In this document: one piece after another, positions 9,036-24,974 of the stretch
Numbering within the stretch: position 1 is the stretch's first letter
Layout of the letters: every line of letters begins with the position of its first letter
Source of the DNA: a virus
Reading direction: 5' to 3' (one strand)
DNA length: 41,702 bases
Virus record (IMG/VR): IMGVR_UViG_3300034655_000019
Made by a program: the position numbers and the translations under genes
Notes under the pieces: generated by a model
Told to the model about the DNA's origin: nothing
The model's input: the letters and a program-made list of their open reading frames with translations, nothing else
Databases searched by the model: none

Positions 9036-9084
9036 GTTTAACTGTTGCACGAAGCGCGGGCAAGTCTCTACAGAGATTTTGCAA

Positions 9085-10050
9085 ATGGATGCTGCAGCAG
9101 AGAACGCGCAGCCCCTCACGTGGGGGCGCGTGCCGTACGAACACCCAGGCAAGTGGTGGGGCACTGGTAACCGGTGTGGCCACGACCCCGCTAAAGGGGA
9201 ATTTGACCGCTATTGCCAACCGCTGAAAAAGGGCAGGCTACCCGCCACCCTGCAGGCGTTGGTAGACGGTGCAAAAGCCTACTACACCAGCCCCGGCTTA
9301 TTACCCACCCTGGCCAATCTGAATGGCAAGGCCAACGCCGATGGCAACCCCCGTTGTAACCGATCCGAGGCCCGCGCCGCTGAGTCGCTGGTGCTTTCTG
9401 CCATCATTCAGTTTACCGAGTTCGCCAGCCTGCGGGTGGGCACCCCGCTAGCCGATGGTGGTTTCAAGCACCGCAGCTGCGCTGAAATTGCCCGCGTGGC
9501 GGGCCTGCTGGCACCCGGCAGCACACCAGAAGCCCCCGAGCCTAGCCAACGCTTTTGGCGCGCCTTCCGGCGCTTGAAGCTGGCTGGCGCGTTCACCGTG
9601 CATTTGCAGCATGAAGTCAAAGCCGACGGCACGAAGCGGGCGCGGCCTGCTGTGAAGCTACTCAACCCGGATTTTCTGCTGGCGCTGGGGCGTGTGGGCT
9701 ACCAGAAGTTTAAGGAGTTCCGCGACTGGTGCAGCAACCGCATTAAGAAAGCCCGCCGTAAGCACCGCGAACAGCACCCCAAGGCGTACGACGCCGCCCA
9801 GGCCCGTAGCCGCCTAGCGATGGCAGGCAGCGGCCCCAGAGCGATGCAGAAGCAGCGCCGGGGTAAGAAGGATCTACCCGACGCCAACGATGAAAAAGAA
9901 CTGCAGCGCCGCTATAACCAAGAGGCAAACGCCTACTTTGCCCAGGTGGTGCGCGATAACCCCGGTGCCAGCCATGCCGAGGTGAACAAGCTGGTGCGCA
10001 TCAAGTACCCGCCGTATGAAGAGTGGCTAGACCGGCAGCGACGTTACTAG
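9085..10050 (+). CDS. repA: Plasmid replication initiator, IncFII RepA-like
   Basis: By-eye colinearity with R100/R1 RepA: SEARAAESLVLSAIIQF..RSCAEIARVAGLL..RFWRAFRRLKLAGAFTV, then a basic C-terminal tail. First ATG in the frame is at 9085. An ori-like region lies directly downstream. Confidence 0.6.
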   Translation: MDAAAENAQPLTWGRVPYEHPGKWWGTGNRCGHDPAKGEFDRYCQPLKKGRLPATLQALVDGAKAYYTSPGLLPTLANLNGKANADGNPRCNRSEARAAESLVLSAIIQFTEFASLRVGTPLADGGFKHRSCAEIARVAGLLAPGSTPEAPEPSQRFWRAFRRLKLAGAFTVHLQHEVKADGTKRARPAVKLLNPDFLLALGRVGYQKFKEFRDWCSNRIKKARRKHREQHPKAYDAAQARSRLAMAGSGPRAMQKQRRGKKDLPDANDEKELQRRYNQEANAYFAQVVRDNPGASHAEVNKLVRIKYPPYEEWLDRQRRY

Positions 10051-10999: not shown

Positions 11000-11272
11000 A
11001 TGCCCCGCCCCAAGCAAATGAACGCCGATGAAGTGGCCACGTGGTTAGCTGTGCTGCTAGATGCTGCCTTTGACCCCGCCCACGATGCCGTAGAACAGCA
11101 AGGCAAGGCCCAACTGCTGGCGCTGGCCAGCGACTTTACCCACTACCCCGACGATTACCCGGACGCCCGCCGGGCTGAATTGCTATTGCGGTGGGTGTCG
11201 ATCTGGCTACCCGGCGAATGGTGGCAGCGGTTGCAGGGCCGGGTAAGAAAGCGGCGTTCACGTGGCGCTTAG
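11000..11272 (+). CDS. Hypothetical protein
   Basis: ATG 11000 with AGGTG 7 nt upstream (the track starts at GTG 10991); 90 aa. Confidence 0.4.
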   Translation: MPRPKQMNADEVATWLAVLLDAAFDPAHDAVEQQGKAQLLALASDFTHYPDDYPDARRAELLLRWVSIWLPGEWWQRLQGRVRKRRSRGA

Positions 11273-11916
11273 TGTGCCTTTTCGCGCATAGCCCGCTTTA
11301 CCTTTTTCACAGTGGTTTCACCGCACCCGGCTAGCTCGCAAATGCGCGCCGTGGTGAACGGTTTGCCTTCACCATCGCGGGCGTTCAATAGCGCTTCAAT
11401 TCGCTGGTGTAGTGCCTTGTTGGGCCGCTTGCCCTGGTACTTGCCTTCCTTCTTTGCTTGCTCTATCCCCTGGCGCTGGCGCGTTCGCCGGTCGTCGTAG
11501 TCTTTGCGGGCTACCGCTGCGAGTACGTCTAGCATCATGGTATTCAGCGCATCGAGCATGCGGGCGGTAAAATCCTCGCCCTGGCTGGGCGTGGCCATGG
11601 CTGCGTAGCTAGTGGGAAGGTCCAGCGACACCACCCGTAACCCTAGCGCCTCAATCTGCCCCCGCAGGTGCCGCCACTCTGCCGCCCCCAGGCGGGAAAG
11701 ACGGTCTACCGATTCTATCAGCAGCACATCACCTTGCTTGGCATCTTCCAGAAGCCTCCTGAGTTCTGGGCGCTGGCTGCTAGCGCCGCTCACATTCTCG
11801 ATATACCAGCTCACTACCTCACGGCGATGTTCAGCGGCGAAGTGTTCTAGCGTGCTGCGTGCCCGCTGGGCGTTCTGTTCTGCCGTGCTGGCGCGTAGGT
11901 ATCCCCTGACGTACAT
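11269..11916 (-). CDS. Serine recombinase (resolvase/invertase family), probable multimer resolvase
   Basis: N-terminal YLRASTAEQ catalytic-Ser motif, DRLSR motif, C-terminal HTH FTTARICELAGCGETTVKKV. Confidence 0.85.
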   Translation of the reverse strand: MYVRGYLRASTAEQNAQRARSTLEHFAAEHRREVVSWYIENVSGASSQRPELRRLLEDAKQGDVLLIESVDRLSRLGAAEWRHLRGQIEALGLRVVSLDLPTSYAAMATPSQGEDFTARMLDALNTMMLDVLAAVARKDYDDRRTRQRQGIEQAKKEGKYQGKRPNKALHQRIEALLNARDGEGKPFTTARICELAGCGETTVKKVKRAMREKAH

Positions 11917-12301: not shown

Positions 12302-12607
12302 ATGAAAAGCACAGCTGCTGAGGCAGTGGCTAAGCCACTGGCCCTCAATATGCGTGTTGACCCTAAAAAACGCGCCTTGATCGATAGAGCCGTAGCGGAG
12401 CTGGGGGGAGACCGAACCAGCTTTATAGTTGAAGCCGCCTGTAGACGCGCCGAAGATGTTTTGATGGATCGACGTTACTACATGCTGGATGAAGACGACT
12501 ACGCGTTCTTCGAGCAGGCCATTAACAAGCCTATATCGGAGAGACCGTGTCTACAGAAACTTTTACGAAAAGTCCCTTCATGGGAGTCAGTGCACCCGAA
12601 CGCCTAA
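12302..12607 (+). CDS. DUF1778 RHH antitoxin (TacA/AtaR/KacA type)
   Basis: LNMRVDPKKRALIDRAVAELGGDRTSFIVEAACRRAEDVLMDRR closely parallels TacA; overlaps the toxin gene. Confidence 0.85.
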   Translation: MKSTAAEAVAKPLALNMRVDPKKRALIDRAVAELGGDRTSFIVEAACRRAEDVLMDRRYYMLDEDDYAFFEQAINKPISERPCLQKLLRKVPSWESVHPNA

Positions 12608-13062
12608 CGCAAGAGCATGACTTGTCAGCTTTCGACTGCGATAAGTCTTCACTCAATGGCTTTTTAAAAGAGCGAGCGTTAGAAAATACTGCAACCAAAG
12701 CGACAATTACCTACGTGGTGTGCCGCCCAGGAACAAAGCAAGTGGTCGGCTATTTTAGCGTTTGTCCTGGCGGCGTTGATCGAAACGAATTGCCGGGCAA
12801 ATATAAGAAAAACATGCCGAGCATGGTGCCTGTCATCATTCTAGCGAGGCTTGCAATAGATAATTCTATTAAGGGCAATGGAGTTGGTCAGGATTTATTG
12901 CAGGCCGCGTTACTGATGGCTATTGAAAGCTCTTACCACATGGGTGCAGTGGGTATGATGGTTAATGCTGCCGATGATGCGATAGATTTTTATCTAAAGC
13001 ATGACTTCGACGCTTTCCCAAAAGATCCATCGAAGCTAATCACCTCGCTGAAGCTAGAGTGA
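12580..13062 (+). CDS. GNAT acetyltransferase toxin (TacT/AtaT/KacT type)
   Basis: MGVSAPERLTQEHDLSAFDC..., NMPSMVPVIILARLAIDNSIKGNGVGQDLL, colinear with Salmonella TacT. Start at ATG 12580 rather than GTG 12547. Confidence 0.85.
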   Translation: MGVSAPERLTQEHDLSAFDCDKSSLNGFLKERALENTATKATITYVVCRPGTKQVVGYFSVCPGGVDRNELPGKYKKNMPSMVPVIILARLAIDNSIKGNGVGQDLLQAALLMAIESSYHMGAVGMMVNAADDAIDFYLKHDFDAFPKDPSKLITSLKLE

Positions 13063-14034: not shown

Positions 14035-14277
14035 CTAGCCCTTCCCTTTTTCCCGCTTGTACGCTGCCCAGGCTTCCTTGAGTACGTCCACCATTTGCAT
14101 GTCATGCTCTACGGCAAACGCTTTAAACTCCCGGCGCATTTCAGGATCAACGCGGAAATTCAGCGGCACCTTTTCGCCGCTTTCCGGTTTGCTGGTGTTG
14201 TTGCCCACTACCGGGCCGGGGGTGGCTGCCGTGGGCGGTGCGCCTTTGCTGCTGGGTTTCATGCTTGGCTTTGCCAT
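14035..14277 (-). CDS. Ribbon-helix-helix centromere-binding/regulatory protein (ParG/omega-like)
   Basis: Disordered basic N-terminus, then RHH pattern KVPLNFRVDPEMRREFKAFAVEHDMQMVDVLKEAWAAY. Immediately downstream of parA. Confidence 0.7.
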   Translation of the reverse strand: MAKPSMKPSSKGAPPTAATPGPVVGNNTSKPESGEKVPLNFRVDPEMRREFKAFAVEHDMQMVDVLKEAWAAYKREKGKG

Positions 14278-14298: not shown

Positions 14299-14322
14299 GC
14301 GTGCTAGCGTTATATAACGCTT
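14299..14322. repeat. ATAACGC heptad locus A (GCGTGCTAGCGTTATATAACGC), between parA and the parG-like gene
   Basis: Contains the 14-bp perfect palindrome GCGTTATATAACGC (14307-14320) and the rc of ATAACGCTAGCACGC. Confidence 0.8.
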
Positions 14323-14965
14323 AATTAACAAGCGATTCAAAGCGGTTGATGATGTTTTGTATCAGTTCATCCGCTTGGGCCTTCGGGCCTTTGAATGGGG
14401 TTTCAACAATCGACAGCCCTTTATCTTGGGCTAATACAAACGCGTCGCGCTCGGGTACTTGGCCATCGAGTACAAAATAGGGCGTATGGGCGAGGTAGGC
14501 GCGGGCATCCTGCAGCTGCGTTTTACTCTTGCCCACTTTGCTCAGCGCGATGGCGATGCGCTCAATGGGTACGCCCTCTTGGCCGGTGAGTGTGTTGGCC
14601 AGCCTTACGGTGGGTTCAAGGTCGTCAACGCTTAACGCGGTGGGTAGAACGACGAGATCCGCAAGCCGGGCCACTTCGGCGGTGGCTTTGGTGGCATGGG
14701 GCGCGCCGTCGAAAATCATTAGGTCGTAGGTATCGGCTACCTTTAGAGCGCTGGCCACCGTGCCGAACGTCTCTACGGCCACCTCTGGCGTTACGCCGCT
14801 TTTGAGGCGGCGTTGTAACCAGGTGAAAGAGGTGGATTGGTTAATATCGAGATCCGCTATTTTTACATTCCAGCCCGCAGCGGCGTAGGTGGTGCCCAGC
14901 GCCCGGCTTAGGGTGCTTTTGCTGACGCCGCCCTTTTGGCTAACGAAGGCTATCTTGTGTCCCAT
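14321..14965 (-). CDS. parA: ParA partition ATPase (small type Ib, deviant Walker A)
   Basis: KIAFVSQKGGVSKSTL deviant Walker A; 214 aa without an N-terminal HTH; AAGGGGA RBS. Confidence 0.9.
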   Translation of the reverse strand: MGHKIAFVSQKGGVSKSTLSRALGTTYAAAGWNVKIADLDINQSTSFTWLQRRLKSGVTPEVAVETFGTVASALKVADTYDLMIFDGAPHATKATAEVARLADLVVLPTALSVDDLEPTVRLANTLTGQEGVPIERIAIALSKVGKSKTQLQDARAYLAHTPYFVLDGQVPERDAFVLAQDKGLSIVETPFKGPKAQADELIQNIINRFESLVN

Positions 14966-15005
14966 TGGTGTTTCCCCTTATATGTTCGTTGCGTTTTTGC
15001 GCGCT

Positions 15006-15116
15006 GGCGTTACAGCGTGAAATAACGCTAGCACGCAATAACGCTAGTATAGGAAAGCGCCGCTAGGGGTGCAAGATAAAACGCTATAACGCTAGCGTTA
15101 TTTAACGCTTGGCGTT
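15006..15116. repeat. ATAACGC heptad locus B, about 8 heptads in both orientations upstream of parA (candidate centromere/operator)
   Basis: GCGTTAC..AATAACGCTAGCACGCAATAACGCTAG...AAAACGCTATAACGCTAGCGTTATTTAACGCTTGGCGTT. Confidence 0.8.
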
Positions 15117-15124
15117 CAGGCAGC

Positions 15125-15148
15125 AAAAAGCCCGCGCGGTGGCGGGCT
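15125..15148 (-). terminator. Rho-independent terminator after the ORF6N gene
   Basis: AGCCCGC-gcggtg-GCGGGCT; TTTTT on the minus strand. Confidence 0.75.
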
Positions 15149-15171
15149 TGGGTGGGCTGGCGCGGGTGGGC

Positions 15172-15954
15172 TTACTGTTTGGCGAGTAAGCCGTTGTGGA
15201 TTAGCACTTGCTTGGCTATCGCTTTCCAGTTGGGGCGCTGGCCGATGTGGTGTTGGCCACCGGCTAGCTTGCTGATCCATGCGGTGTAGGGCTGGCCTTC
15301 GCCTACCACCTCTTTTAAAAACGACTGTTGGAAGTCATACCTAAAATCTTCGTATTGGCGCACCTTGGGGCGTAGGGCTTGGAGGCGTTCCATCACCGCC
15401 GGGAAGTCGTCCTGGCTTAAATCTTCGATGCGTTTTAGGCAGTAGTCGGTGCGGACGCCGTTGTAAAACCAGCCGGTGGCGCTTTGGCGCATGCCGTGGA
15501 AGTTGCGAAACACGGCGTTAGCCGCGTTGGTGAGCTGTTCGCGCTGGCGGTGGTCGATGGGCGTAGGGATGGGCTCGGCGGTGGTGGGCTGCATCGCGCC
15601 TTTGACGCGGAAATAGCTTTTGACGAGCTGGCGCTGCACTTGCCATGCGAGGTCGTCGGTAAACGATTTGACCAGCATAAGGTAGCCGGTTTCGGTCACT
15701 AGGTTGGTTGCCCGCGCCTTGGCTGGGAATAGGTCTGCGTAGCGCGTACGAAATTCGTACGCGCAACTTAATTCGATTGGGTGAAAGTCCTCGCCTTCAA
15801 TCATGTGGCGTTTGTTTTTATGGAAAGTACGTCGCGCTGTTCCTTCTGGCCGCTGGTGTACAGCGTCAATCATGGCGAAGGTAACAACGGGTTCGTTTTG
15901 GTATTCGATATAAGGCAGGGAGGTGCCAGAGATAGAAATGGTGGGTGTGTTCAT
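15172..15954 (-). CDS. ORF6N/KilA-N domain DNA-binding protein (antirepressor-like)
   Basis: EPVVTFAMIDAVHQRPEGTARRTFHKNKRHMIEGEDFHPI...TETGYLMLVKSFTDDLAWQVQRQLVKSYF fits the ORF6N pattern. ATG 15954 with AAGGAAG RBS; the track's upstream extension is rejected. Confidence 0.6.
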   Translation of the reverse strand: MNTPTISISGTSLPYIEYQNEPVVTFAMIDAVHQRPEGTARRTFHKNKRHMIEGEDFHPIELSCAYEFRTRYADLFPAKARATNLVTETGYLMLVKSFTDDLAWQVQRQLVKSYFRVKGAMQPTTAEPIPTPIDHRQREQLTNAANAVFRNFHGMRQSATGWFYNGVRTDYCLKRIEDLSQDDFPAVMERLQALRPKVRQYEDFRYDFQQSFLKEVVGEGQPYTAWISKLAGGQHHIGQRPNWKAIAKQVLIHNGLLAKQ

Positions 15955-16267
15955 TTTGGGGCTTCCTTTGATTTGAGGAAGTCCGCCGCATCGCTTCCAA
16001 CCGATGGTGGCGAACCGTACGCAGGTTGGAAGACCGGCCAAAGGTAACCGGCGCGCCGAAGCGCCCCACGCACGGCCCGCCATAGTCATCATGCGGGCAT
16101 AAAAAAACGCCTACACGATAAAACGGGGCGCTGTGCGCCTTTGGTTGCGGGCTTCCAAACCCGGTCGCTGATTTTGCAGCGACACGGGGAGAGTAGCGCT
16201 AGGGCGGGTGGGCGTCAATGGCTGGCCTCGCTGGCGCGCTTCATCGCGGCTAGGCAGCGGCGGCAGT

Positions 16268-17086
16268 TCACGGCTTTGGCCTCTTTGTTTCGGTCATGTC
16301 GGCTTGCTCGATCAGCTGGTCGCTAAAGCGCAGCCCTTTTAGTTGCAGGGTGTCGGTGAGTACGCCGCTGACGCGTTCATCAATGGTGATGGCGAGGTTG
16401 GTGGCTTGTCGCCCGCTTTCGAGTAGCTGCTGTATTTCGTCGCTGTCGAGATCCACTTGCGTGGCGGCTATTTTGCCGTCGTCGCCTTTGGCTTTGAGCG
16501 TGGCTTTGTCGCCTAGCTGCAGGTTGGCGGGGCGGCTTTGGGCGTCGCTTACCCAGGTGGTCATGGCGCGGATGGGTAGCGTTTGGGTGCTGAGCGGGGT
16601 GGCTTTGAGGCTGCCGAGGGTTTCGCGTAGCAGGTCTAACAGCTCTTCGCAGCGGGCGCGGCTGCCGCTGTTGATGATGATGCGGTTTTTTTCTACGTCC
16701 CACCATGCGTCGATTTTGACGCTATCGATAAAGGCGCGGGGTAGCAGCTCCTCGGTGATCTGTTCTTTGAAGGCGGTTTTTTCTTTGCGCGTGACCTTGC
16801 GGCCTTCGTTGGCTTCGACCTCCGCTGCCTTTTCCTCTACCGCTGCTTTCACCACTTTGGGTGGCAGCATGCGTTGCTGTTTGAGCATGCTGAGCAGGCG
16901 GTGGCCTTGGCTTTCGTGCAGATAGGCGTTGCTGGCGCGGCCTGCTGGGGGGGTCCAGCCGTGGCGCTTGGCATCGGTATTGCCTAACGGCTTGGCGGCT
17001 TCTGCTTGCAGCGTTTCATGCAACGTTATGCTGTCGATCGCTTGGGCGTTGTGGAGCTGGTAAACGGTGATGTTGGTAAACCACAT
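16268..17086 (-). CDS. rdgC: Recombination-associated protein RdgC homologue
   Basis: MWFTNITVYQL..., GWTPP, LPRAFIDS and LGSLKATPLS are colinear with E. coli RdgC (MLWFKNLMVYRL, GWVPP, LPRAFSRF, LGSLPVVPLS). Confidence 0.8.
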   Translation of the reverse strand: MWFTNITVYQLHNAQAIDSITLHETLQAEAAKPLGNTDAKRHGWTPPAGRASNAYLHESQGHRLLSMLKQQRMLPPKVVKAAVEEKAAEVEANEGRKVTRKEKTAFKEQITEELLPRAFIDSVKIDAWWDVEKNRIIINSGSRARCEELLDLLRETLGSLKATPLSTQTLPIRAMTTWVSDAQSRPANLQLGDKATLKAKGDDGKIAATQVDLDSDEIQQLLESGRQATNLAITIDERVSGVLTDTLQLKGLRFSDQLIEQADMTETKRPKP

Positions 17087-17114
17087 GGCTGGGCTTCCTG
17101 TTTCGGTTTTGTTT

Positions 17115-17147
17115 GCGTTATTGCGTGCTAGCGTTTTTTAACGCTGC
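17115..17147. repeat. ATAACGC heptad locus C, upstream of rdgC
   Basis: GCGTTATTGCGTGCTAGCGTTTTTTAACGC. Its 21-nt core (17115-17135) is the exact rc of 15024-15044. Confidence 0.8.
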
Positions 17148-17633
17148 TTGCTGGAGCCGCTGCTGGCGGCGTTCGCGCTTTTGCTGGGCGCGGGCTTTGC
17201 CACCTAGGCGGGCGGCTTGGCTAGTGGGCATTACCGGGGTGTTGAGCGCTTTATCTAGCGGCCAGTTGCGGCTAATGCGGTGATACACCAGCTGGGGGCT
17301 TAGCCCTGCTGCAAGGGCGCGTTCGCGTAGGGTGTTTTGCAGTTTGGCTTTGCGCGCCTGCAGAAAGGCGAGGGCGTCTTCATCGCTTAGCTGGCTTTCG
17401 GGGTGTTCGCGGCGGTAGCGGCTTAGGGCGCATTCATCTAGCCCGGCGGCTAGGCTCTTTTGGCGCTTGCTGGTGGCGATGGGCTTTATGCCACCCTTTT
17501 TGAGTGGTTTGGTGGCGGCTTTTTTCGCGTCCATGGTTTTCAGGCGATAGAGAAACGTTCTGCGCTGAATGCCGTTTTGCTCTGCGATGCGCTGCCAGTG
17601 GCTTAGTGGTAGGTCGGTCGCCATAATTTTCAT
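17118..17633 (-). CDS. Putative DNA-binding protein with repeated HTH-like segments
   Basis: Three AAGL/..Y.R-type helix-turn-helix-like repeats; basic C-terminus; ATGA coupling with the upstream gene. Confidence 0.4.
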   Translation of the reverse strand: MKIMATDLPLSHWQRIAEQNGIQRRTFLYRLKTMDAKKAATKPLKKGGIKPIATSKRQKSLAAGLDECALSRYRREHPESQLSDEDALAFLQARKAKLQNTLRERALAAGLSPQLVYHRISRNWPLDKALNTPVMPTSQAARLGGKARAQQKRERRQQRLQQAALKNASTQ

Positions 17634-17932
17634 GCCATCACCCCGTAGGCGGTTAACCGGCGTTCTTCGTGGTCGCCGTAGTGTGGGTTTTCAAAACAGA
17701 ATTCTGAGCGGATGCGGTGCGGGAAGTGGTAGCCGTCGCAGTAGCACGTGTATTTACGCCAGCCCCGGTTATCGGCCCATTTGTCGACTACCAGCGTGTT
17801 GAATTGGCCGCAGTGTTTGCAGCGGATGCGGCGGGTGTAGTCATTCGGGTGCTTGGCCTTGACCTGCCGCCCACGGCAGACGCGACAGCGGCAGTGCCTA
17901 CGGCGCGGGCCTGTGAGGATGTGCGGTTTCAT
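17630..17932 (-). CDS. Cys-rich zinc-binding hypothetical protein
   Basis: CRCRVC, CKHC and CYCDGYHFPH motifs; 100 aa. Confidence 0.45.
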   Translation of the reverse strand: MKPHILTGPRRRHCRCRVCRGRQVKAKHPNDYTRRIRCKHCGQFNTLVVDKWADNRGWRKYTCYCDGYHFPHRIRSEFCFENPHYGDHEERRLTAYGVMA

Positions 17933-18330
17933 GTGCGGCGACCCCCTGCGCTACTGCCCCGCTGAGTACGCATTAGGCGGGCGCTGGCGGTTTGCGTGGG
18001 GCGGCGGGGTAGGCGCTGGGCGATGGCATCTTGTTGGGCGCCATTGCCGAGTGTGGCGACGATCAGTAGCACGGTGAGGCAGCGAGGTAGCAGCACGCCC
18101 AGCACGAACGCGCGGGTAATGAGGTGCGCTTTGCTGAACGCGCCCAGCTTGGCCCGCAGGCTGCTTTCGAGCTGCTGCTGTTGGGCGCGGCTGGTGCCGT
18201 TGATGGCGGCAATGGCGCTGGGGGCGTTGCCGTTGGCGAGGGCGAGCAGGTGGGATAGCTCTTGCTCGCTGAGGGCTTGGCCGGGTTGGGCTAGGGCGTC
18301 GTCGTCGCGCCATGGGGTGGTGTTAGTCAT
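17929..18330 (-). CDS. LuxR/GerE-type HTH protein with hydrophobic C-terminal segment
   Basis: LSEQELSHLLALANGNAPSAIAAINGTSRAQQQQLESSLRAKLGAFSKAHLITRA fits GerE spacing. Followed by LLPRCLTVLLIVATLG. ATG 18330 overlaps the upstream stop. Confidence 0.55.
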   Translation of the reverse strand: MTNTTPWRDDDALAQPGQALSEQELSHLLALANGNAPSAIAAINGTSRAQQQQLESSLRAKLGAFSKAHLITRAFVLGVLLPRCLTVLLIVATLGNGAQQDAIAQRLPRRPTQTASARLMRTQRGSSAGGRRT

Positions 18331-18580
18331 GGTGGCCACCCGTGGCGAGTTCGGCTAGCGCGGCCTTGATCTCTTCTAAATCGCGGCGGTGGCGGTTAAT
18401 GAGAGCAAAAAGGTTGTCGAGTTCTTCCGCTGGGTACTCGCCTTCATCTAGCGCGCATTGGGCCATTTTTTCGAGGCCGCAGGCGATAGCCACGCTTTCG
18501 CGCAAGGCTTGGTGTAGCGCTTGGGGCGTGCAGGCGATGGGGGGCGAGGCGGTAACGGGGGCTAGCGCGTGCGTGGTCAT
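18323..18580 (-). CDS. Hypothetical protein, first gene of the leftward early operon
   Basis: AAGAGGG RBS; 85 aa; directly downstream of operators 18598-18634. Confidence 0.5.
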   Translation of the reverse strand: MTTHALAPVTASPPIACTPQALHQALRESVAIACGLEKMAQCALDEGEYPAEELDNLFALINRHRRDLEEIKAALAELATGGHHD

Positions 18581-18597
18581 TAGTGAAACCCTCTTGA

Positions 18598-18614
18598 TTA
18601 CACAGTCTGTGTAA
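18598..18614. promoter_or_regulatory. Operator OL-1: TTACAC-AGTCT-GTGTAA
   Basis: Perfect 8-bp arms TTACACAG/CTGTGTAA. Confidence 0.65.
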
Positions 18615-18617
18615 GAG

Positions 18618-18634
18618 TGACACTAAATGTGTTA
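18618..18634. promoter_or_regulatory. Operator OL-2: TGACAC-TAAAT-GTGTTA
   Basis: Same ACAC-N5-GTGT core, centre 20 bp from OL-1. Confidence 0.6.
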
Positions 18635-18645
18635 TTCGGCAAGCC

Positions 18646-18673
18646 AAAAAAACGGCACTTTGTGGGTGCCGTT
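18646..18673 (-). terminator. Rho-independent terminator after the repressor gene
   Basis: AACGGCAC-loop-GTGCCGTT; 7 T on the minus strand. Confidence 0.8.
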
Positions 18674-18707
18674 CTAGGATTGGGGTGTTTTTCCGCTGGG
18701 CGGGGGC

Positions 18708-19361
18708 TTAGCGTTCGTGCTCGATGATGGCGACGCGGCCGATGATGTTGAGCTGTTGTAGCTGCCCGGTGGTGAGGGTTTCATCCGGGTATTGGTGGCT
18801 GTTTTCGGCGCTCATGGTGTAGCTGCCGTTGATTTCCGGGCGTATCCAGCGCAGCCAAATGCGGTCGCCTACGAGGATGGCGAAGAGGTCGCGCACGGCA
18901 TCGGGCTTGCGGCTCATGTCGATTAGCGCTAAATCGCCCTTGCTGATAACCCCTTCCATGGCGTCATCTTCGGCTTTGACGGTGATAATACTGCTGGGTT
19001 TTAGCCCTTTTTCGGCTAGGTAGTCGTCGCGGTAGGCGGCTACATCGGTGGCGTTTTGCACGGTGATCGAGCCGCCACGGGTTTTAACCGTGGTGCGGTC
19101 TAGCACGACGTAGCTGCTGTCGATCATGCGGTTTGTCCAGCCGACAAAATAGCCGGGGTTGCAGCCAGTTACGTTGCCGATGTCTTCCAATTCTTGATAG
19201 CCGGGCATGCGAATGCCTAGCTCCCAGTTGGTATAACGAGAGCGCACGTAGCCGAGCGCTTCGACTGCGTCGCGGATCGACCACCCTAAGTGGGTGCGCA
19301 CTTCCACTAGTCGCTGTGCGATTAGCTCTTTTTTGTCCTGTCTGTCGCTTTGCTGTGACAT
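18708..19361 (-). CDS. CI-like repressor (XRE HTH + S24/LexA-like domain with apparently substituted catalytic dyad)
   Basis: N-terminal HTH (LGWSIRDAVEALGYVRSRYTNWELG). C-terminus aligns to UmuD/LexA/CI: VKAEDDAMEGVISKGDLALID versus [22 protein letters not shown], and RIWLRWI versus EFTVKKL. Confidence 0.8.
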   Translation of the reverse strand: MSQQSDRQDKKELIAQRLVEVRTHLGWSIRDAVEALGYVRSRYTNWELGIRMPGYQELEDIGNVTGCNPGYFVGWTNRMIDSSYVVLDRTTVKTRGGSITVQNATDVAAYRDDYLAEKGLKPSSIITVKAEDDAMEGVISKGDLALIDMSRKPDAVRDLFAILVGDRIWLRWIRPEINGSYTMSAENSHQYPDETLTTGQLQQLNIIGRVAIIEHER

Positions 19362-19456
19362 TTTCCGCTTCCCGTTATCTATCCCGCCGTTGATGCCGTC
19401 CGTGTGCGCCTTCGGTGATTAATTTTCGGGTAAATATTACCTCTTAGGCAATAGTA

Positions 19457-19473
19457 ATACACAAAGCGTGTAA
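19457..19473. promoter_or_regulatory. Operator OR-1: ATACAC-AAAGC-GTGTAA
   Basis: In the cI/cro divergent region. Confidence 0.6.
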
Positions 19474-19492
19474 GTGTGGAATAAAAAAACCT

Positions 19493-19777
19493 TTGTACGT
19501 GGGCAATCTTCGCGCTAGGCTTAACACACTTCGTGTTAAATGGTGCGCTAAAGTGTTGCTAAATGATTGGATTGATCAAGTGGGCGGGCCGGACTGTGCG
19601 GGCGCGCTGCTCAGCGAGAAGCCCCGTACGGTGATGAGCTGGTATCGCTTTGATCGTGCCCCGAGTTTACGCACCGCTGGGCGCATCGTGCGGTTGACCG
19701 CTGGCGCGGTGGATTATAACGGCATCTATGGCCCTTGGGCGGCGGTGCTGGCTGAGCGTGATGGGGTGGCGGCGTGA
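19493..19777 (+). CDS. Cro/YdaS-like DNA-binding protein (true start probably downstream, e.g. GTG 19556)
   Basis: LNDWIDQVGGPDCAGALLSEKPRTVMSWYRFDRAPSLRTAGRIVRLTAGAVD fits the Cro/YdaS HTH family pattern. The track start is TTG and would include operator OR-2. Confidence 0.6.
   Translation: MYVGNLRARLNTLRVKWCAKVLLNDWIDQVGGPDCAGALLSEKPRTVMSWYRFDRAPSLRTAGRIVRLTAGAVDYNGIYGPWAAVLAERDGVAA
19522..19538. promoter_or_regulatory. Operator OR-2: TAACAC-ACTTC-GTGTTA
   Basis: Perfect arms (7 bp with flanks TTAACAC/GTGTTAA). Confidence 0.6.
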
Positions 19778-20340
19778 GTGGGTTTGTTCACCCCGCCGGG
19801 CTTGCGCACAGCGAGGGCGTGGCCACCGTGGCGGCTGAGTATGGGTTGATTGGTTATGCCCGCTATTTGCTGGTGCTGGAAACCCTAGCCGCCGCTACCG
19901 GGCCGGTACAAAAAACCTATGTGGCGTGGGGCGATTTGATGCAGGCCGACGACGATAGCGCCCGTGAGTTCATGGCGTTTTACCAAGCGCAGGGGCTGTT
20001 GATCGTCGAGGATGATGGCGAATCACTCACGGTGCATTGCCCGACGCTTGAACGCGCAGACCCTGCCCAGGCACCCGCCGATGACACGCTTTACCACCAT
20101 GCCGAGCAGTGGGCGGCGTGGTTTATCAATGATCTGGCTTACCCGCCCCACGTGGCGAATCACCCCGACAACTTGCGCTATTTCGCCCGCTGGTGCGTTT
20201 CCCGCGTGACCGTGGGGGATATGAGCGCGGCAGTCGAGGCGGCGTTACGTCAGGGCGATGCGGCCAAGGTGACCGTGTTGCACGACATTTTGCAGGCGCA
20301 CCGCGCCCAACGACTCAGAGAGGCCGTCGAATGCTATTGA
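19774..20340 (+). CDS. Early protein with DUF4373-like N-terminus (possibly replication-associated)
   Basis: VATVAAEYGLIGYARYLLVLETLA resembles the DUF4373 core; GTGA coupling to cro. Confidence 0.35.
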   Translation: MSGFVHPAGLAHSEGVATVAAEYGLIGYARYLLVLETLAAATGPVQKTYVAWGDLMQADDDSAREFMAFYQAQGLLIVEDDGESLTVHCPTLERADPAQAPADDTLYHHAEQWAAWFINDLAYPPHVANHPDNLRYFARWCVSRVTVGDMSAAVEAALRQGDAAKVTVLHDILQAHRAQRLREAVECY

Positions 20341-20741
20341 TTGGAATTGCTGGCGCTAACGCGACGGCACGCGAGCGCGTGGCGCGGGCAATGCGTGATG
20401 CGCAGATTTGTACCGTGTCGGTCTACACCGATGCGCCCGCGCAGCGCTTTGGCTCTCATGCCGAAGTGGCCCGCCGCATGCAGCGCTTGGAGGGGATGAT
20501 TAGCGCGACCCCGGCCAAGGGCGCGGAGTGCTTGGTGGTGGCCCACGTGGTGCATCGCGTAGAAGCCGAGCGCATCCGTAAACTGGGTGGCCATGTAGTG
20601 CATGTAGAGGGCGTGCCGAGCGACGAGGTGCCCATTGTGCGCGGGGATCTGCTGGCCACCGCCACCAAAGACGGCCACCGCCATTTTATCGATGGTGAGG
20701 CGGCGCTGTCTGAGCTGTGGGCTAAGCGGGGTGTGGCGTGA
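20331..20741 (+). CDS. dNMP-kinase-like protein with degenerate P-loop
   Basis: MLLIGIAGANATARE (no GK[ST]) and LVVAHVVHRVEAERIRKLGGHVVHV resemble the phage dNMP kinase layout. ATG 20331 overlaps the upstream stop. Confidence 0.3.
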   Translation: MLLIGIAGANATARERVARAMRDAQICTVSVYTDAPAQRFGSHAEVARRMQRLEGMISATPAKGAECLVVAHVVHRVEAERIRKLGGHVVHVEGVPSDEVPIVRGDLLATATKDGHRHFIDGEAALSELWAKRGVA

Positions 20742-20977
20742 GCCGTTACGCCAAAGGCGCGGCGATGCTGTGCAATAACCCCCTATTTCGTGACTATCTT
20801 ACGGCTACCACCGGGCGCAGTGTGCCGGATGCCGCCACGGCGGCGGCAGAGGTGCGTCTGGCGTGTGGGGTGCTGAGCCGCCGTGAATTAGACGGAAACG
20901 AGCAAGCCGGGCGCGAATACCTGGCGCTGGTGGAGCGGTTTAACGATTGGCTGGGGGCGCGCAATGCAACGGCATAA
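20738..20977 (+). CDS. Hypothetical protein
   Basis: 79 aa, GTGA coupled. Confidence 0.4.
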   Translation: MSRYAKGAAMLCNNPLFRDYLTATTGRSVPDAATAAAEVRLACGVLSRRELDGNEQAGREYLALVERFNDWLGARNATA

Positions 20978-21296
20978 CATGCGCCGCCGTGCGCCCAATG
21001 CGGCTAAGTACAACAACAAGAAAGTGACCATTCACGGCCATACGTTCGACTCGAAAAAAGAGGCGAATTACTACCTTTACCTGCTGAGCGAGCAGCAAGC
21101 CGACCGCGTGACCATGTTCCTGATGCAAGTGCCTATCGCCCTACCGGGTGGGGTGAAATACATCGTTGATTTTGTGGTGTTCCGCGCTGATGGCTCGGTG
21201 GAGTGGATCGACGTTAAAGGCGTGCGCACTGATATGTACAAGCTGAAAAAGCGGCAGGTCGAGGAGCTGTACCCGCTGACGATTGTGGAGGCGTAG
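20964..21296 (+). CDS. DUF1064 family nuclease-like protein (putative Holliday-junction resolvase)
   Basis: KYNNKKVTIHGHTFDSKKEANYYLYL...YIVDFVVFRADGSVEWIDVKG matches the DUF1064 signature. Confidence 0.7.
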   Translation: MQRHNMRRRAPNAAKYNNKKVTIHGHTFDSKKEANYYLYLLSEQQADRVTMFLMQVPIALPGGVKYIVDFVVFRADGSVEWIDVKGVRTDMYKLKKRQVEELYPLTIVEA

Positions 21297-21298
21297 CG

Positions 21299-21724
21299 GT
21301 GGGGCGTCGGGCGGCAAATGATCTGGATGATCTGTTAGAGCGCTGGGCGCGCTGGTGCCTGCACGGTGGCGGCGCTGCGCTGGGTACGTCGCTGCTGGGC
21401 GTGTTGATCGATAACGGCGGGGTAGTGAGCCGTTCGACCGTGGGCGGGTCGGTCCCCATGGGCGCGGAGTCGTACCCGCTCGAAGAGCGCATCGAGTATG
21501 CGGTGGTATCGCTGGCGCGTGAGGATCTGTTGACCGCCGACGTGTTGCGCTTGGAGTACAACGCGGGCGTGGCGCGGGTGGTGAGCCGCCGCAAGCTGCG
21601 TGGCTATGACCACCGCAATATAGGGCAGCTGCAGAAGGCCCACGCGTTAGAAATGGGGGTGAGAACGTACAAGCGGCGGTTGGCTAAGGCCCGTTTGCAT
21701 GTTGAGCAGGTGCTAGGGCTGTGA
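21299..21724 (+). CDS. Putative late-gene regulator (antiterminator Q-like / sigma region-4-like HTH)
   Basis: LERWARWC..., VLRLEYNAG..., C-terminal GVRTYKRRLAKARLHVEQVL; GTG start with GGAGG RBS; last gene of the early-right block. Confidence 0.35.
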   Translation: MGRRAANDLDDLLERWARWCLHGGGAALGTSLLGVLIDNGGVVSRSTVGGSVPMGAESYPLEERIEYAVVSLAREDLLTADVLRLEYNAGVARVVSRRKLRGYDHRNIGQLQKAHALEMGVRTYKRRLAKARLHVEQVLGL

Positions 21725-21870
21725 CTTCCAAAGCGGTTAACTGTGTATTCCGCGTGACCGTTTTGGAAGGCAGGAAGCCTAAGACGTTTTCTATGGTAGT
21801 GCCTGCCAGCACGACCAAGAAGGCAGCAAGAACAAGCGTTATCGCCCGCTTTGGGGCGCATCGAGTGGTA

Positions 21871-21903
21871 AGCGTGAAATAACGCTAGCACGCTATAACG
21901 CAG
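21871..21903. repeat. ATAACGC heptad locus D, upstream of the 21959 gene
   Basis: AGCGTGAAATAACGCTAGCACGCTATAACGC, about 30 nt shared with 15014-15043 (1 mismatch). Confidence 0.8.
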
Positions 21904-21958
21904 ACACTGGCAATGAGCGTTGGCGCGCTATTCAAAACCGACAGTAGGAGTTACGGCC

Positions 21959-22615
21959 ATGATTGAAGCCGTTGAAGTGGCAAGAGAGAAGGATGGTAGC
22001 TTTACGCACCCTGATTGGGAGGCTCTGTTAGATTCGTTGGGTGATATGGAGCACTTGCCCCGATACATTAAATCGCTTTTTGAAAAGTCGCATGGATGCA
22101 CTATTGAGGTAGTGACCTTTGAGGGCTCTGTTGATGAAGATAGTCCCGCATACCAAGAGTATGTTGAGGAAGGCGGGGGCTTTGCGCTATGGGAGCTAGA
22201 GAAGCCTACTGCAGGTGCGGTGCTGCTTTCTATTCACGATACGGAAGATGGCCCTGTTCAGTGGTGGGCGGTGCCTTCCGCTTCATTTTCTTACGACTTG
22301 GTAGCGCATCTTGATCGGCAGCGGGCCTTTTCGGTTAAAGCCTTTGGCCCTGGTGCCCGCGCTGAGGGGATTAGCGACCACATTATAAAAGAGCTTGCCG
22401 AGGTGGCAGCTGCCCCAGAGGATCTTTCCGAGTGGATTGATATTGTTCTGCTGGGTTTCGATGGCGCTTGGCGCGCTGGCCATAGTTCAGCCGCTATTGC
22501 TGGCGCTTTAGCCGGTAAGCTGGCAAAGAATGAGCAACGGGACTGGCCTGATTGGCGAACGGCAGACCCTAACAAAGCCATTGAGCATAACCGGGAGGCG
22601 TCTGCTAATGCCTAA
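21959..22615 (+). CDS. DUF550/MazG-like dATP/dGTP pyrophosphohydrolase domain protein with extra N-terminal domain
   Basis: C-terminal half GISDHIIKELAEV...LSEWIDIVLLGFDGAWRAGHS...KNEQRDWPDWR...AIEH. ATG 21959 with TAGGAG RBS. Confidence 0.55.
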   Translation: MIEAVEVAREKDGSFTHPDWEALLDSLGDMEHLPRYIKSLFEKSHGCTIEVVTFEGSVDEDSPAYQEYVEEGGGFALWELEKPTAGAVLLSIHDTEDGPVQWWAVPSASFSYDLVAHLDRQRAFSVKAFGPGARAEGISDHIIKELAEVAAAPEDLSEWIDIVLLGFDGAWRAGHSSAAIAGALAGKLAKNEQRDWPDWRTADPNKAIEHNREASANA

Positions 22616-22994
22616 TCTCAATCAGCCCCGATTAGTGACCGGCCATGCCGTGAGCCGCAACGGGCGCGGTGACATGGGCCAAGCGGTGATCGCTCACGGG
22701 CCGTACTCCCCAGGCGGTGCCCAAAACCATTACCTCATTGGTGTGGGCGCTGAGTGCGAATTGATGACTGGCGGTGCCCAGGTGTTGGGGTGTATCAGCT
22801 TTCAGGACGGCAACCCGCAAGAGGTTGGGCCTAATGGCGTGACGCTGGAAGCGGTGCTGGCGGTGTGTGCCGACCGCCTGGAGCGCTTTCAAGATGGGCC
22901 GCATGCGAACCTCTATAACGCTGAGGCACTGCTAGGGATTGAGCGTGCGCTAGAGGCGTTGAAAGATCGCACGCGGGAGCGTGATGGCTTATGA
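22608..22994 (+). CDS. Conserved-looking hypothetical phage protein
   Basis: ATG 22608 overlaps the upstream stop; C-terminal RLERFQDGPHANLYNAEALLGIERALEALKDRTRER motif; family not recognised. Confidence 0.45.
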   Translation: MPNLNQPRLVTGHAVSRNGRGDMGQAVIAHGPYSPGGAQNHYLIGVGAECELMTGGAQVLGCISFQDGNPQEVGPNGVTLEAVLAVCADRLERFQDGPHANLYNAEALLGIERALEALKDRTRERDGL

Positions 22995-23509
22995 GCGTCG
23001 CAGTTAAGCCGATTCTTGATCCTTGTTGCGGCGGGCGCATGATGTGGCATGACCGTGATAATCCATCGGTAGTGTTTGGCGATTGCCGATCAGAAAAAAT
23101 CACAGTTACTGACCGCAGCCACGGTAAGCATGAAGGCACGCGAACGTTGCTCATTGAGCCAGACGTGTTGCTCGACTTCCGAAACCTTCCGTATGCCGAT
23201 GGCACGTTTAAGCTCGTCGCTTTTGACCCACCGCATCTATGTCGAGCAGGGCCGCGAAGCTGGCTAGCAGCGAAGTACGGAAAGTTGAGCGACAACTGGC
23301 AAGACGATATTCGCAAAGGTTTTGAAGAGTGCCTGAGAGTGCTGGAGCCCGGCGGCACCCTGGTTTTCAAGTGGAACGAAACGCAGGTCAAGATAGGCGA
23401 AGTCATAAAGCTTGCCCCGCAGCCGCCGCTATTTGGCCATCTATCAGGCCGTAAGGGGCTAACGCACTGGCTAGTGTTTATGAAGCATGATGAGAACGAC
23501 GGCCTTTAA
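22991..23509 (+). CDS. SAM-dependent DNA methyltransferase (N6-A/N4-C type, DPPH motif), orphan
   Basis: Motif I ILDPCCGG, motif IV FDPPH; no adjacent endonuclease. Confidence 0.7.
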   Translation: MSVAVKPILDPCCGGRMMWHDRDNPSVVFGDCRSEKITVTDRSHGKHEGTRTLLIEPDVLLDFRNLPYADGTFKLVAFDPPHLCRAGPRSWLAAKYGKLSDNWQDDIRKGFEECLRVLEPGGTLVFKWNETQVKIGEVIKLAPQPPLFGHLSGRKGLTHWLVFMKHDENDGL

Positions 23510-23517
23510 ACCAGTCT

Positions 23518-23563
23518 TTTAAAACGCTATAACGCTAGCGTCATATAACGCAATAACGCAACG
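23518..23563. repeat. ATAACGC heptad locus E, upstream of the integrase
   Basis: AAAACGCTATAACGCTAGCGTCATATAACGCAATAACGCAAC; the first 21 nt are shared with 15078-15098. Confidence 0.8.
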
Positions 23564-23621: not shown

Positions 23622-24890
23622 ATGCCTAAAACCCTCGCTGTTACCCTGTCTGATGCTGCGATTAAGCGGCACCTACCTGACCCTGATATTTTCCAGTTGC
23701 GCGACCCGCGCTACCCGGTGCGGGTGCGCTTTCATGCGAGCCGTGATCGTGCCAGCTGGTACGTGGTGCGCTACGCGGGCGGGCGTGGCCACTGGCACCG
23801 GGTGGGCAATTACCCGGAGTTGACGACCCGCGCTTTGCTGGCGCGTTTGCCTGAGTTGGAGGCCAAGCTGGCGCTTGACCCGGCGGGGCCGGTGGGCGTC
23901 GATGCGTGGGAAACCGTGGCCGACCTGCTGTGTTGGTATCGTGACCGTTCGGCTTCCCATGGCCGTTTATCCGCTACTCGAAAATCATCGATCAAAACCG
24001 CCGTTAATCGTCACTTGCTGCCCCTGTTCGGTGCCCGGCCGCTGGCGGGCATTACCCCGGCGTGTATCGACAGTGGCTTGGTGTGGCCGCTGCAAGAGCA
24101 TTATTCGGTGGCCTATGTGCGCCTGATTTTCGGGGTGATCAAGGCCGCGTTTAAGCAAGCCCGCAAGCTGAACCTGCTGGATACTGACCCCTTCGCTGGG
24201 GTGAATGTGGGTGATTTCATCGACGCAAAAACCCCAGCTAAGGCGGGGGCGCTGACCGCTTCCGATGTGCCTGATCTGATAAGCGCGTTGCGTTCGTGCG
24301 ATCCGCCGGGGTGTTTCCTGCTGTTGTTAATGCTGCTGTTTGGCACCCGTATTAGCGAGACGCGGCTAGCCAAGTGGGGGCAGTTCGATCTCGAAGCGCG
24401 CACGTGGACCATCCCCACCGACAACACAAAATCAAAGCGACAGCACCGCCTGCCGTTAACGCCCATGGCCGTGACGCTGCTAACCCGTTACCGCGCTTAT
24501 CAGCAAGCCAATGGTTACCGGGGAGTGTATTTGTTCCCTGGTGCATCGAAAGGTAAGCCGCTATCCCGTTCAGCCGTGTTTGATCTGGTGGTGAGTGCCA
24601 GTGGTGCGCGTTGGCATTCTCACGATCTGCGTAAGCTCGCCCGTACCACATGGGCTGACCTCGGGGTCGAGTATCTGGCCGGTGAGTTGTTGCTGAACCA
24701 TGCGCTATCGAAGCTCGACCGTACCTACATTCATACCTACGCTGAGCGGCAGATTCTCGATGCGTTGGAGCGCTGGCATACCTGGCTATGTGAGCGCGGT
24801 TTTAGCGTGTTTCTGACCGAGACAGAGCCGAGATTGTCGTTTTATCACAACAGCGACCAGCCCCAGTGGTGGCAAGGGGTGGCGGGGTAA
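23622..24890 (+). CDS. int: Tyrosine integrase, P4-type (DUF4102-like N-terminal arm-binding domain)
   Basis: GTRISETRLAKWGQFD, HDLRKLARTTWADLG, LLNHALSKLDRTYIHTY (R..HxxR..Y catalytic pattern). Confidence 0.85.
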   Translation: MPKTLAVTLSDAAIKRHLPDPDIFQLRDPRYPVRVRFHASRDRASWYVVRYAGGRGHWHRVGNYPELTTRALLARLPELEAKLALDPAGPVGVDAWETVADLLCWYRDRSASHGRLSATRKSSIKTAVNRHLLPLFGARPLAGITPACIDSGLVWPLQEHYSVAYVRLIFGVIKAAFKQARKLNLLDTDPFAGVNVGDFIDAKTPAKAGALTASDVPDLISALRSCDPPGCFLLLLMLLFGTRISETRLAKWGQFDLEARTWTIPTDNTKSKRQHRLPLTPMAVTLLTRYRAYQQANGYRGVYLFPGASKGKPLSRSAVFDLVVSASGARWHSHDLRKLARTTWADLGVEYLAGELLLNHALSKLDRTYIHTYAERQILDALERWHTWLCERGFSVFLTETEPRLSFYHNSDQPQWWQGVAG

Positions 24891-24974
24891 TGAGCAAACC
24901 TATCTGTTAAGAGTATCCAGCACCTGCCGCGATGGTGGTTGGCATGCTGGTGTGTAACACTCTTGAGGGGCATT

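Follow-up and report, generated by a model that had tools for sequence, protein, structure and literature searches.

The virus record IMGVR_UViG_3300034655_000019 from IMG/VR, whose 41,702 nucleotides were analyzed in full and are called the window below, contains six arrays of contiguous 8-bp units at five loci that span 9.3 kb. Two of the arrays flank the putative promoter of parA, a partition ATPase gene followed by the gene of a small ParG-like protein with a predicted ribbon-helix-helix (RHH) fold, and the other four are dispersed. The explanation that we favor, and hold to be probable by a modest degree, is that all six are sites for the RHH protein of this type Ib module, with the parA arrays acting as operator and centromere and the dispersed ones as accessory centromeres and/or roadblocks to transcription. 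Related phages carry the same layout with other boxes, and the system appears to be a type Ib partition system with dispersed, oriented, and co-evolving operator/centromere arrays across a temperate phage family. The features on which the argument rests are listed here.

14035..14277, minus strand: RHH gene, 80 aa, ParG-like; starts 43 nt past the parA stop codon
14290-14321, minus strand: array A, 4 units in the 43-nt parA-RHH spacer; ends 12 nt before the RHH ATG
14321..14965, minus strand: parA, 214 aa, short Walker-type partition ATPase, type Ib, ParF-like
14990-15045, minus strand: array B1, 7 in-phase units, one of them degenerate, in the parA leader to 25 nt before the ATG
15046..15074, minus strand: putative parA promoter, -35 TTGCAC at 15074-15069, 17-nt spacer, -10 TATACT at 15051-15046
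15078-15109, minus strand: array B2, 4 units directly upstream of the -35, plus an off-phase box at 15111-15118
15125-15146: terminator of the gene upstream of the parA promoter
17114-17145, minus strand: array C, 4 units; ends 27 nt before the rdgC ATG (17086)
21871-21902, plus strand: array D, 4 units; ends 17 nt before the DUF550 gene 21920..22615
23521-23560, plus strand: array E, 5 units; ends 61 nt before the tyrosine integrase gene (int) 23622..24890

Repeat unit and array statistics

A sequence-only reading of the window had claimed clusters of the heptad WTAACGC at five loci, and all five were present when the sequence was read again. The heptad occurs 27 times in the window versus 12.2 ± 3.5 times in dinucleotide-preserving shuffles, none of 100 of which reached 27; 14 of the 27 copies lie inside the five loci, and the remaining 13 are at chance level. 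The near-exact blocks said to be common to several loci are also real, with 31 nt at 97% identity (15014-15044 versus 21871-21901) and 32 nt at 94% identity (15077-15108 versus 23520-23551). On the contrary, the seven-base period was not borne out. The repeat period is 8 bp, and the heptad was rejected on the spacing of the boxes, which is 8 bp for direct, 2 bp for converging, and 6 bp for diverging pairs. These distances fit only a series of contiguous 8-mers, each reading NNNACGCN (NNN-ACGC-N). The unit consensus, ATAACGCT, combines an invariant ACGC box with four A/T-rich spacer bases (counts from 26 units: A(21) T(18) A(19) A C G C T(18)), and the units follow each other head-to-tail every 8 bp in both orientations.

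An exhaustive scan, which the same reading had proposed as a check, was performed over the whole 41.7 kb for at least three contiguous in-phase units in either orientation. It yielded exactly six arrays of 4 to 7 units, all at the five loci and none elsewhere. Exact in-phase runs in the window amounted to 546 singles, 12 doubles, no triples, 4 quadruples, and 2 quintuples, while third-order Markov simulations produced 0.09 arrays of at least three units per genome and arrays of at least four units in 0 of 100 runs. When all 256 four-base cores were compared, ACGC gave six arrays, its complement GCGT gave four (the same sites in another register), and every other core gave at most one. Five of the arrays occupy intergenic gaps; array C instead overlaps the last 28 nt of the open reading frame (ORF) 17118..17633. 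Full activation of the ParA ATPase of pSM19035 needs at least four contiguous repeats (PMC9499535), and every array in the window reaches this minimum. Weak matches at 19755, 20033, and 40603 were considered as extra degenerate arrays and rejected, being at simulation level and lacking the A/T-rich spacers.

The parA-RHH module and its promoter

The product of parA matches the Pfam families CbiA, AAA_31, and MipZ and the NCBIfam model ParA_partition (E 7.5e-28, below the equivalog cutoff), and its best PDB sequence matches are 5u1g ParA and 4dzz ParF of TP228. As in type Ib systems, it is short (~200-220 aa), has a deviant Walker A motif (KGGVSKST, residues 11-18), and is devoid of an N-terminal helix-turn-helix (HTH) domain. 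Its partner falls into phrog_6024, whose function is not annotated. Sequence matches of this protein are faint: Pfam RHH_10 at 20.5 bits (cutoff 27), the type Ib segregation protein PrgO of NCBIfam at E 4.7e-4 (below cutoff), and 2kel at E 0.22 as the sole match of a profile search against PDB. The AlphaFold2 model contains a coil (residues 1-44) and two helices (45-57 and 62-77), with predicted local distance difference test scores (pLDDT) of 73-81 in the domain and a mean of 65. Its Foldseek neighbors in PDB are nearly all RHH proteins (StnY, CdbA, ParG 1p94 at rank 4, CopG, Arc, and AmrZ), all with E above 0.1. Across 18 RHH homologues, KGAPP and VVGNNTSKP in the tail hardly vary, and residues N40 and R42 of the strand VPLNFRV are invariant. 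The two tail motifs (residues 7-31), recognizable in distant relatives too, are candidate sites of ParA contact and activation.

Upstream of parA, the order on the minus strand is the terminator of the preceding gene, B2, TTGCAC, 17 nt, TATACT, B1, a Shine-Dalgarno sequence, and parA, with B1 beginning 1 nt past the -10 hexamer. The consensus promoter scan missed this promoter because its -35 matches the consensus at 3 of 6 positions. Type Ib systems have their centromere upstream of the operon, built of direct and inverted repeats (PMC5016525), and here, in the same place, eleven in-phase 8-bp units (B1 and B2 together) flank TTGCAC-17-TATACT. Judged by its letters, the B2/B1 arrangement is a putative operator sandwich around a good sigma-70-type promoter.

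Relatives with the same layout and other boxes

The window has no close DNA relatives among deposited phages by megablast, and the best ParA relative in a scan of species-representative genomes was 52% identical. Searches with ParA (tblastn) found the Vibrio phages VPHZ6 (L001; 58%) and 10N.237.312.C11_PE002A (PQ189289, L002; 52%) and the Aliivibrio phage H905 (L003; 52%). Each of them is laid out like the window and encodes an integrase and an RHH homologue (80-83 aa). In their records this homologue is a hypothetical protein, and the 6 to 7 dispersed arrays that each carries are without annotation. Every genome has its own top-scoring family of 8-bp arrays:

VPHZ6: typical units ATAACGAA / AGCACGAA; 7 arrays
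PQ189289: typical units AAGAAAGC / ACGAAAGG; 7 arrays
H905: typical units ATAAAGAA / TTAAAGAA; 6 arrays

Chance would give 0.04-0.07 arrays per genome in the three relatives, so that across the four complete genomes 6 to 7 arrays stand against 0.04-0.09 expected. A scan for ACGC found nothing in VPHZ6, PQ189289, and H905, and a scan for ACGA found nothing in the window. In all three relatives the parA promoter region carries arrays (on both sides of the promoter in VPHZ6), and the rest are dispersed. Homologous positions in the late operons occur despite the differing boxes: an array follows the tape measure gene in VPHZ6 (14825) and PQ189289 (29732), another follows the tail tube gene in PQ189289 (26381) and H905 (528), and a third precedes the gp25-like gene in PQ189289 (20688) and H905 (35347). 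Dispersed arrays of these three phages adjoin tail, capsid, and baseplate genes inside long late operons. Genes downstream of the extra arrays in relatives gave no matches in Pfam. Known RNA families were not found at the arrays of the window with Rfam, and an RNA hairpin is an unlikely explanation, since the arrays of VPHZ6 and PQ189289 contain direct units only.

Scanning IMG/VR added 80 more loci. Four of them have a ParA 97-99% identical to that of the window and one a ParA 73% identical; these five (L004-L008) keep the RHH domain, the ACGC box, the arrays at homologous loci, and the same TTGCAC / TATACT context. Array B1 is conserved in all five and in L200 and L206. A Tara Oceans contig (L164), with an RHH protein 64% identical and the strand PMNLRV, has TAACGC units and the same promoter sandwich. 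In this contig and in L018, L021, L023, L025, and L026, the hexamer TTGCAG or TTGATC is paired with TATACT. More distant loci (L011, L014, L018, L019, L021, L023, L025, and L026) show the order upstream array, -35, TATACT, inverted array, and parA with other boxes; an array usually also stands between parA and the RHH gene, and others lie some kilobases from the module. Spacer arrays equivalent to A were identified in L011, L014, L018, L019, L021, L025, and H905. Overall, the promoter sandwich was found in about 15 divergent relatives, and the layout, dispersed arrays included, is retained with other boxes (ACGAA, AAGAA, or GAAAG) in more than 15 related lineages of phages. Dispersal of the arrays is a family trait. 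Relatives with a ParA below ~44% identity still encode a small protein of the xLNFKVxPEF type, and exact-core 8-bp arrays were not found in them by this method. We found no description of these arrays or of the partition system of this phage group in the literature searched, which is an incomplete library.

Candidate binder of the arrays

Several lines of evidence argue that the RHH protein 14035..14277 very probably binds the arrays, an assignment made from the sequences compared here. Identical or near-identical RHH domains are paired with the same ACGC box (L004-L008 and L164), and differing beta-strands are paired with differing boxes: NFKRS, NFKVD, and NFKPE with ACGAA, NFKPD of H905 with AAGAA, and likewise the strands of PQ189289 with GAAAG and of L016 with GAATTC. 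A lysine after NF in the strand goes with boxes ending in GAA, while three lineages with arginine have ACGC, ACGT, or AGCT. This pairing of a K/R residue with a box is suggestive, in a sample that is small and phylogenetically structured.

The distribution of the arrays follows the module as well. The exact 14-mer TAACGCTAGCACGC occurs in 45 IMG/VR stretches, 26 of them isolated without an array and 19 inside an array. These 19 belong to some ten contigs, all from this phage group, and the parA and RHH genes of the contigs, where the stretch reaches them, are 97-100% identical to those of the window (parA 73% on the L008 contig). In L014, only parA and the RHH gene are detectable out of the early region of the window, and arrays stand at its promoter, in its spacer, and downstream. 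Furthermore, L007 and L008 have a cI that is 41-44%, a cro that is 57-60%, and a GerE-like protein that is 65-69% identical to those of the window, together with the same RHH domain and arrays.

Comparisons of orthologous arrays gave 12 differences in 440 at the box and 52 in 440 at the spacer, with 8.0% in the flanks, so that boxes evolve about four times more slowly than spacers. The rarity of differences at the box relative to spacer and flank indicates that the boxes are under purifying selection. In addition, the neighboring genes vary while all arrays of a genome have changed box with the RHH protein, which argues for selection for continued binding and not for a fixed regulon. The sequence-only reading had named the RHH protein, or another regulator, as acting through the arrays; this stands as to the RHH-type centromere/operator anatomy, the tie to parA and the RHH gene, and the place of the RHH protein as by far the best candidate binder, leaves a regulatory role plausible, and holds only in part as to a fixed regulon of the omega kind.

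Position and orientation of the dispersed arrays

Arrays A, C, D, and E do precede gene starts, by 12 to 61 nt, as had been claimed for C, D, and E, although a promoter is recognizable at parA only. A consensus scan for co-directional sigma-70 promoters, supplemented by direct reading, found none convincing in or next to A, C, D, and E, and the 32-nt blocks of A, C, and D contain no acceptable -35/-10 pair by reading. Between E and int there is a weak candidate promoter and a GC-rich hairpin. The lack of a recognizable promoter at the dispersed arrays argues against classical operators of the omega type.

Array D, which in the window precedes a DUF550 gene whose product is a dATP/dGTP pyrophosphohydrolase, persists in L004 and L005, where it follows the o21299 homologue and the DUF550 gene is absent. 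Array E is conserved in L004, L005, and L173, and H905 has an array upstream of the integrase too (18851-18882). An array stands upstream of the gene string containing int in all four complete genomes. A fixed programme that couples partition, recombination control, and integrase expression, as the sequence-only reading had inferred, is not established, because the adjoining genes differ widely between relatives.

Orientation was counted in 12 genomes and loci for dispersed arrays whose flanking genes agree in direction, scoring whether the TAACGNN-type units read 5' to 3' on the coding strand, and 29 of 31 arrays were co-oriented with transcription. The usual distance from the end of a dispersed array to the next start codon is 6-30 nt. 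The bias in orientation, absent from the sequence-only reading, points to a block of elongation or to a history as cassettes rather than to classical operators.

Arrays at mosaic junctions

The points at which homology between close relatives breaks off coincide with arrays. Alignment with L004 stops at 23519, the outer edge of array E, and the methyltransferase gene is missing in that relative. In L006, an insertion of 1.8 kb with three ORFs without known function is bounded by B2-like arrays (5547-5578 and 7378-7409), and the alignments on its two sides overlap at 15092-15112 of the window, which suggests the gain of a cassette by recombination at arrays. The rdgC allele has been exchanged in L005 and L008 (60-62% identity), and array C nevertheless stays in both. 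Given these breakpoints, arrays within a specificity group may serve as short patches of homology for the exchange of cassettes, and such exchange could contribute to the orientation bias.

The rdgC gene of the window (16268-17086) is itself shorter, with 272 aa as opposed to 388-389 aa in L004 and L006 (compared with L004 6441-7610). Homology with L004-L008 breaks near 16222-16404, mostly at 16226/16281, and these relatives have an additional ~1.5-2.5 kb segment, in which another array of 5 units is found (e.g., L004 7734-7773). It seems that rdgC in the window was truncated at its C-terminus by deletion of that segment.

Proposed mechanism and alternatives

From the anatomy of the arrays, their statistics and conservation, the link to parA and the RHH gene, and the orientation bias, we infer RHH binding, ParA stimulation, and any effect on transcription. 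The likeness to ParG leads us to propose one RHH dimer per 8-bp unit. Each unit would take its dimer through the two-stranded beta-sheet formed by the strand VPLNFRV, and 4 to 7 contiguous units would be coated cooperatively. B2 and B1 would enclose the parA promoter, reaching from -38 on its upstream side to about +50, and there the RHH protein would repress its own operon and build the main partition complex that stimulates ParA. The dispersed arrays A, C, D, and E, which lie inside transcription units, would be extra loading sites that add partition complexes around the genome, as with the N15 sites and the parS sites of pSM19035. When coated, they would most likely also be roadblocks that lower read-through into the RHH gene, rdgC, the DUF550 gene, and int, and the expression of these genes would fall as the RHH protein accumulates. 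For the RHH gene, array A would provide a second feedback at the level of elongation. A bolder version, which we regard as speculative and rather doubtful, would make the partition protein double as a genome-wide elongation gate: the RHH level would govern segregation, gene dosage, and the silencing of read-through alike, co-evolving boxes would define incompatibility or "immunity" groups, and the arrays would be the junctions of cassettes.

Among the alternatives, operators of the omega type, as originally suggested, would have each dispersed array overlap a promoter, with the RHH protein globally repressing initiation at the partition, rdgC, DUF550, and int genes. The parA promoter is clearly sandwiched by arrays, omega does bind arrays at three promoters that double as parS sites (PMC9499535), and the recurrent array before the int-containing string fits this idea. 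Nevertheless, A, C, and D end only 12-27 nt before starts, leaving no room for a downstream promoter, and neither their 32-nt blocks nor the scan at A, C, D, and E supplied one. Moreover, the arrays of relatives stand between tail, capsid, and baseplate genes in long late operons with a set of neighbors that is not conserved, and we consider this explanation improbable. It is still harder to sustain that another factor, either the GerE/LuxR-like protein (17929..18339) or cI, binds the arrays as phage-specific promoters or immunity operators. Co-orientation and closeness to start codons are indeed promoter-like, and the GerE-like protein is conserved across most relatives (32-46% identity). However, promoters and HTH operators are not made of 3 to 7 identical 8-bp units in both orientations with a unit number that itself varies from 3 to 7, and the arrays flank a normal sigma-70-like promoter in inverted orientation. 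The distribution led us to reject both proteins as binder: L014 has arrays and no detectable homologue of GerE-like protein, cI, or cro, while L007 and L008 have a heteroimmune cI and unchanged arrays. The cI-cro intergenic region, for its part, contains no arrays. Taken together, a role for such a factor appears very remote.

A stronger competitor, tenable though in our judgment unlikely, is that the dispersed arrays are accessory centromeres only, where loaded RHH would assist segregation or clustering driven by ParA, or neutral copies in intergenic gaps, with no effect on expression and an orientation that merely reflects how they spread. In N15 the centromere is split into four inverted repeats at separate places (PMC7205306), a rearrangement of the boxes is tolerated in ParG centromeres (PMC3130281), and all arrays of the window reach the four-unit threshold. 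Array positions also vary between relatives and coincide with mosaic junctions, as at the 1.8-kb insertion of L006 and at the end of homology with L004 at E. Against this, a centromere needs neither the co-orientation of 29 in 31 arrays nor the location of most of them directly before start codons, and neutrality is contradicted by purifying selection and by the fact that the arrays within one genome all changed box together with the RHH protein. The combined reading, with RHH-bound arrays serving as operator, centromere, and possibly roadblock, has its own difficulties. A pure centromere role leaves the orientation bias unexplained, and a pure regulatory role leaves the wide variation of neighboring genes unexplained. 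The bias could be a by-product of cassette exchange at arrays or of selection on A-rich mRNA leaders. The assignment of the RHH fold is weak by sequence, with Pfam and NCBIfam scores below their cutoffs, Foldseek E values above 0.1, and the low mean pLDDT; the evidence that ties the arrays to the RHH protein is correlative throughout, and it comes from lineages that are not independent of one another. Finally, no replication initiator was recognized in the window with PHROGs, Pfam, and NCBIfam (the candidates 8965..10050, 19774..20340, and 20193..20741 had no match), and an integrase is present. Consequently, life as a plasmid, and with it a need for partition, is not established, which limits our confidence in the partition role.

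Related phages bear on this last point. PQ189289 encodes a clear IncFII-type RepA, which, next to its integrase, makes it a phage-plasmid that also carries an integrase, and the record of H905 is circular. The ORF 8965..10050 of the window is unlike the RepA of PQ189289 and unlike the VPHZ6 protein at the same position.

Comparison with known systems

The closest parallel is the ParF-ParG-parH/OF system of TP228, a plasmid of E. coli. Like it, the window has a short Walker ParA with ParF among its best PDB sequence relatives; a protein of ~80 aa, predicted to combine a flexible N-terminal tail with an RHH domain, encoded directly downstream; and, upstream of the operon, 4-bp boxes with four A/T-rich bases in direct and inverted orientation, which in TP228 form operator and centromere. 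The ParG sites of TP228 (operator OF and centromere parH) consist of ACTC boxes with 4-bp AT-rich spacers, take one dimer per box, and are functional in both orientations (PMC3130281). This geometry of a 4-bp box and four spacer bases is what the window shows, so the parallel with the 7-bp omega heptad drawn by the earlier reading gives way to one with TP228 ParG/parH. Unlike TP228, the box here is ACGC instead of ACTC, the RHH proteins have no significant sequence similarity, arrays are found on both sides of the promoter, and four more are dispersed up to 8.5 kb away, co-oriented, in a tailed phage with an integrase. The delta/omega system of the Streptococcus plasmid pSM19035 shares an RHH centromere protein, short contiguous repeats in both orientations at several loci, and the combination of regulator and partition adaptor, here proposed for one protein. 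It differs in its 7-bp heptads (WATCACW), all of which overlap promoters, as opposed to an 8-bp period, an ACGC box, and a promoter visible only at parA.

N15, a linear phage-plasmid, is likewise a temperate phage with partition sites scattered over its genome (SopAB, IR1-4; PMC7205306), the centromere activity of the arrays in the window being putative. Its type Ia system pairs single 16-bp palindromes with SopB, a large ParB of the HTH kind, whereas the window has a short type Ib ParA with an RHH-like partner of 80 aa. The dispersed centromere sites of N15 were reportedly described by Grigoriev and Lobocka in 2001, and effects of Sop on N15 late gene expression are said to have been described by Ravin et al. 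in 2008. A precedent of another kind comes from Cluster A mycobacteriophages, whose stoperators follow the direction of transcription, lie mostly outside promoters, and block elongation (PMC6550527). In L5 and Bxb1, as here, there are many copies of an asymmetric site for a protein (putative in the window); the arrays described here occupy short gaps or the ends of genes. Stoperators are, however, single 13-bp sites, 20-30 per genome, bound by an HTH immunity repressor; the window and its relatives have arrays of 3 to 7 units, 6 to 7 per genome, which track the partition RHH protein and not cI.

Known type Ib centromeres occupy one plasmid locus or, in pSM19035, a few promoters, while the arrays described here are spread over tailed-phage genomes. 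They are oriented, under selection, and, in many lineages of marine and other origin, change in step with the RHH protein. If they are bound as proposed, they would constitute a natural series for the code between RHH beta-strand and DNA (ACGC where the strand has R42, ACGAA or AAGAA where it has K), a case in which control of phage gene expression by a partition protein can be tested, and a possible explanation of mosaic module swaps at short conserved junctions. Additionally, phrog_6024, now annotated as of unknown function, would gain a role.

Genome context

The first and last 127 nt of the window (1-127 and 41576-41702) are identical. This terminal direct repeat indicates a circularly assembled, complete phage genome of ~41.6 kb without bacterial flanks. 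The phage is temperate and myovirus-like, and its remaining features are as follows.

Structural and lysis genes: terminase, tape measure protein, and endolysin
18708..19361: cI-like S24 repressor, from which the early operons diverge leftward and rightward
Leftward early operon: GerE-like protein, HNH-like ORF, rdgC, ORF6N antirepressor, parA, and RHH gene
Rightward early operon: Holliday-junction resolvase, DUF550 pyrophosphohydrolase, DNA methyltransferase, and tyrosine integrase
17929..18339, minus strand: GerE/LuxR-like protein, 136 aa; PHROG match annotated as sigma factor
11269..11916, minus strand: serine recombinase/DNA invertase, in the accessory region 11269-13062 adjoining the par module
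12547..13062, plus strand: acetyltransferase, in the same accessory region

The GerE-like protein resembles a single GerE/LuxR-type HTH domain and had no match in Pfam or NCBIfam; its conservation extends to almost all relatives with the common phage backbone.

Rfam placed three elements, all above the gathering score, on the minus strand at 16003-16196: a C4 antisense RNA (16003-16087), its a1/b1 target (16144-16196), and isrK (16103-16183). This locus sits just upstream of, or overlaps, the 5' end of the ORF6N antirepressor ORF, an arrangement that resembles the ImmI control of the antirepressor in P1/P7. The true start of the antirepressor is probably at ~15954, since its relatives align only from about residue 43-47. 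A stretch at 16096-16126 that had been taken for a remnant array was rejected, as it is really part of the C4/isrK locus.

Lastly, a pair of 35-nt inverted repeats (19523-19557 and 24956-24990; 71% complementary) contains AACAC...GTGTT motifs; one arm falls within the cro-like ORF, close to its start, and the other shortly after the end of int. These could be repressor operators or the arms of a recombination site.

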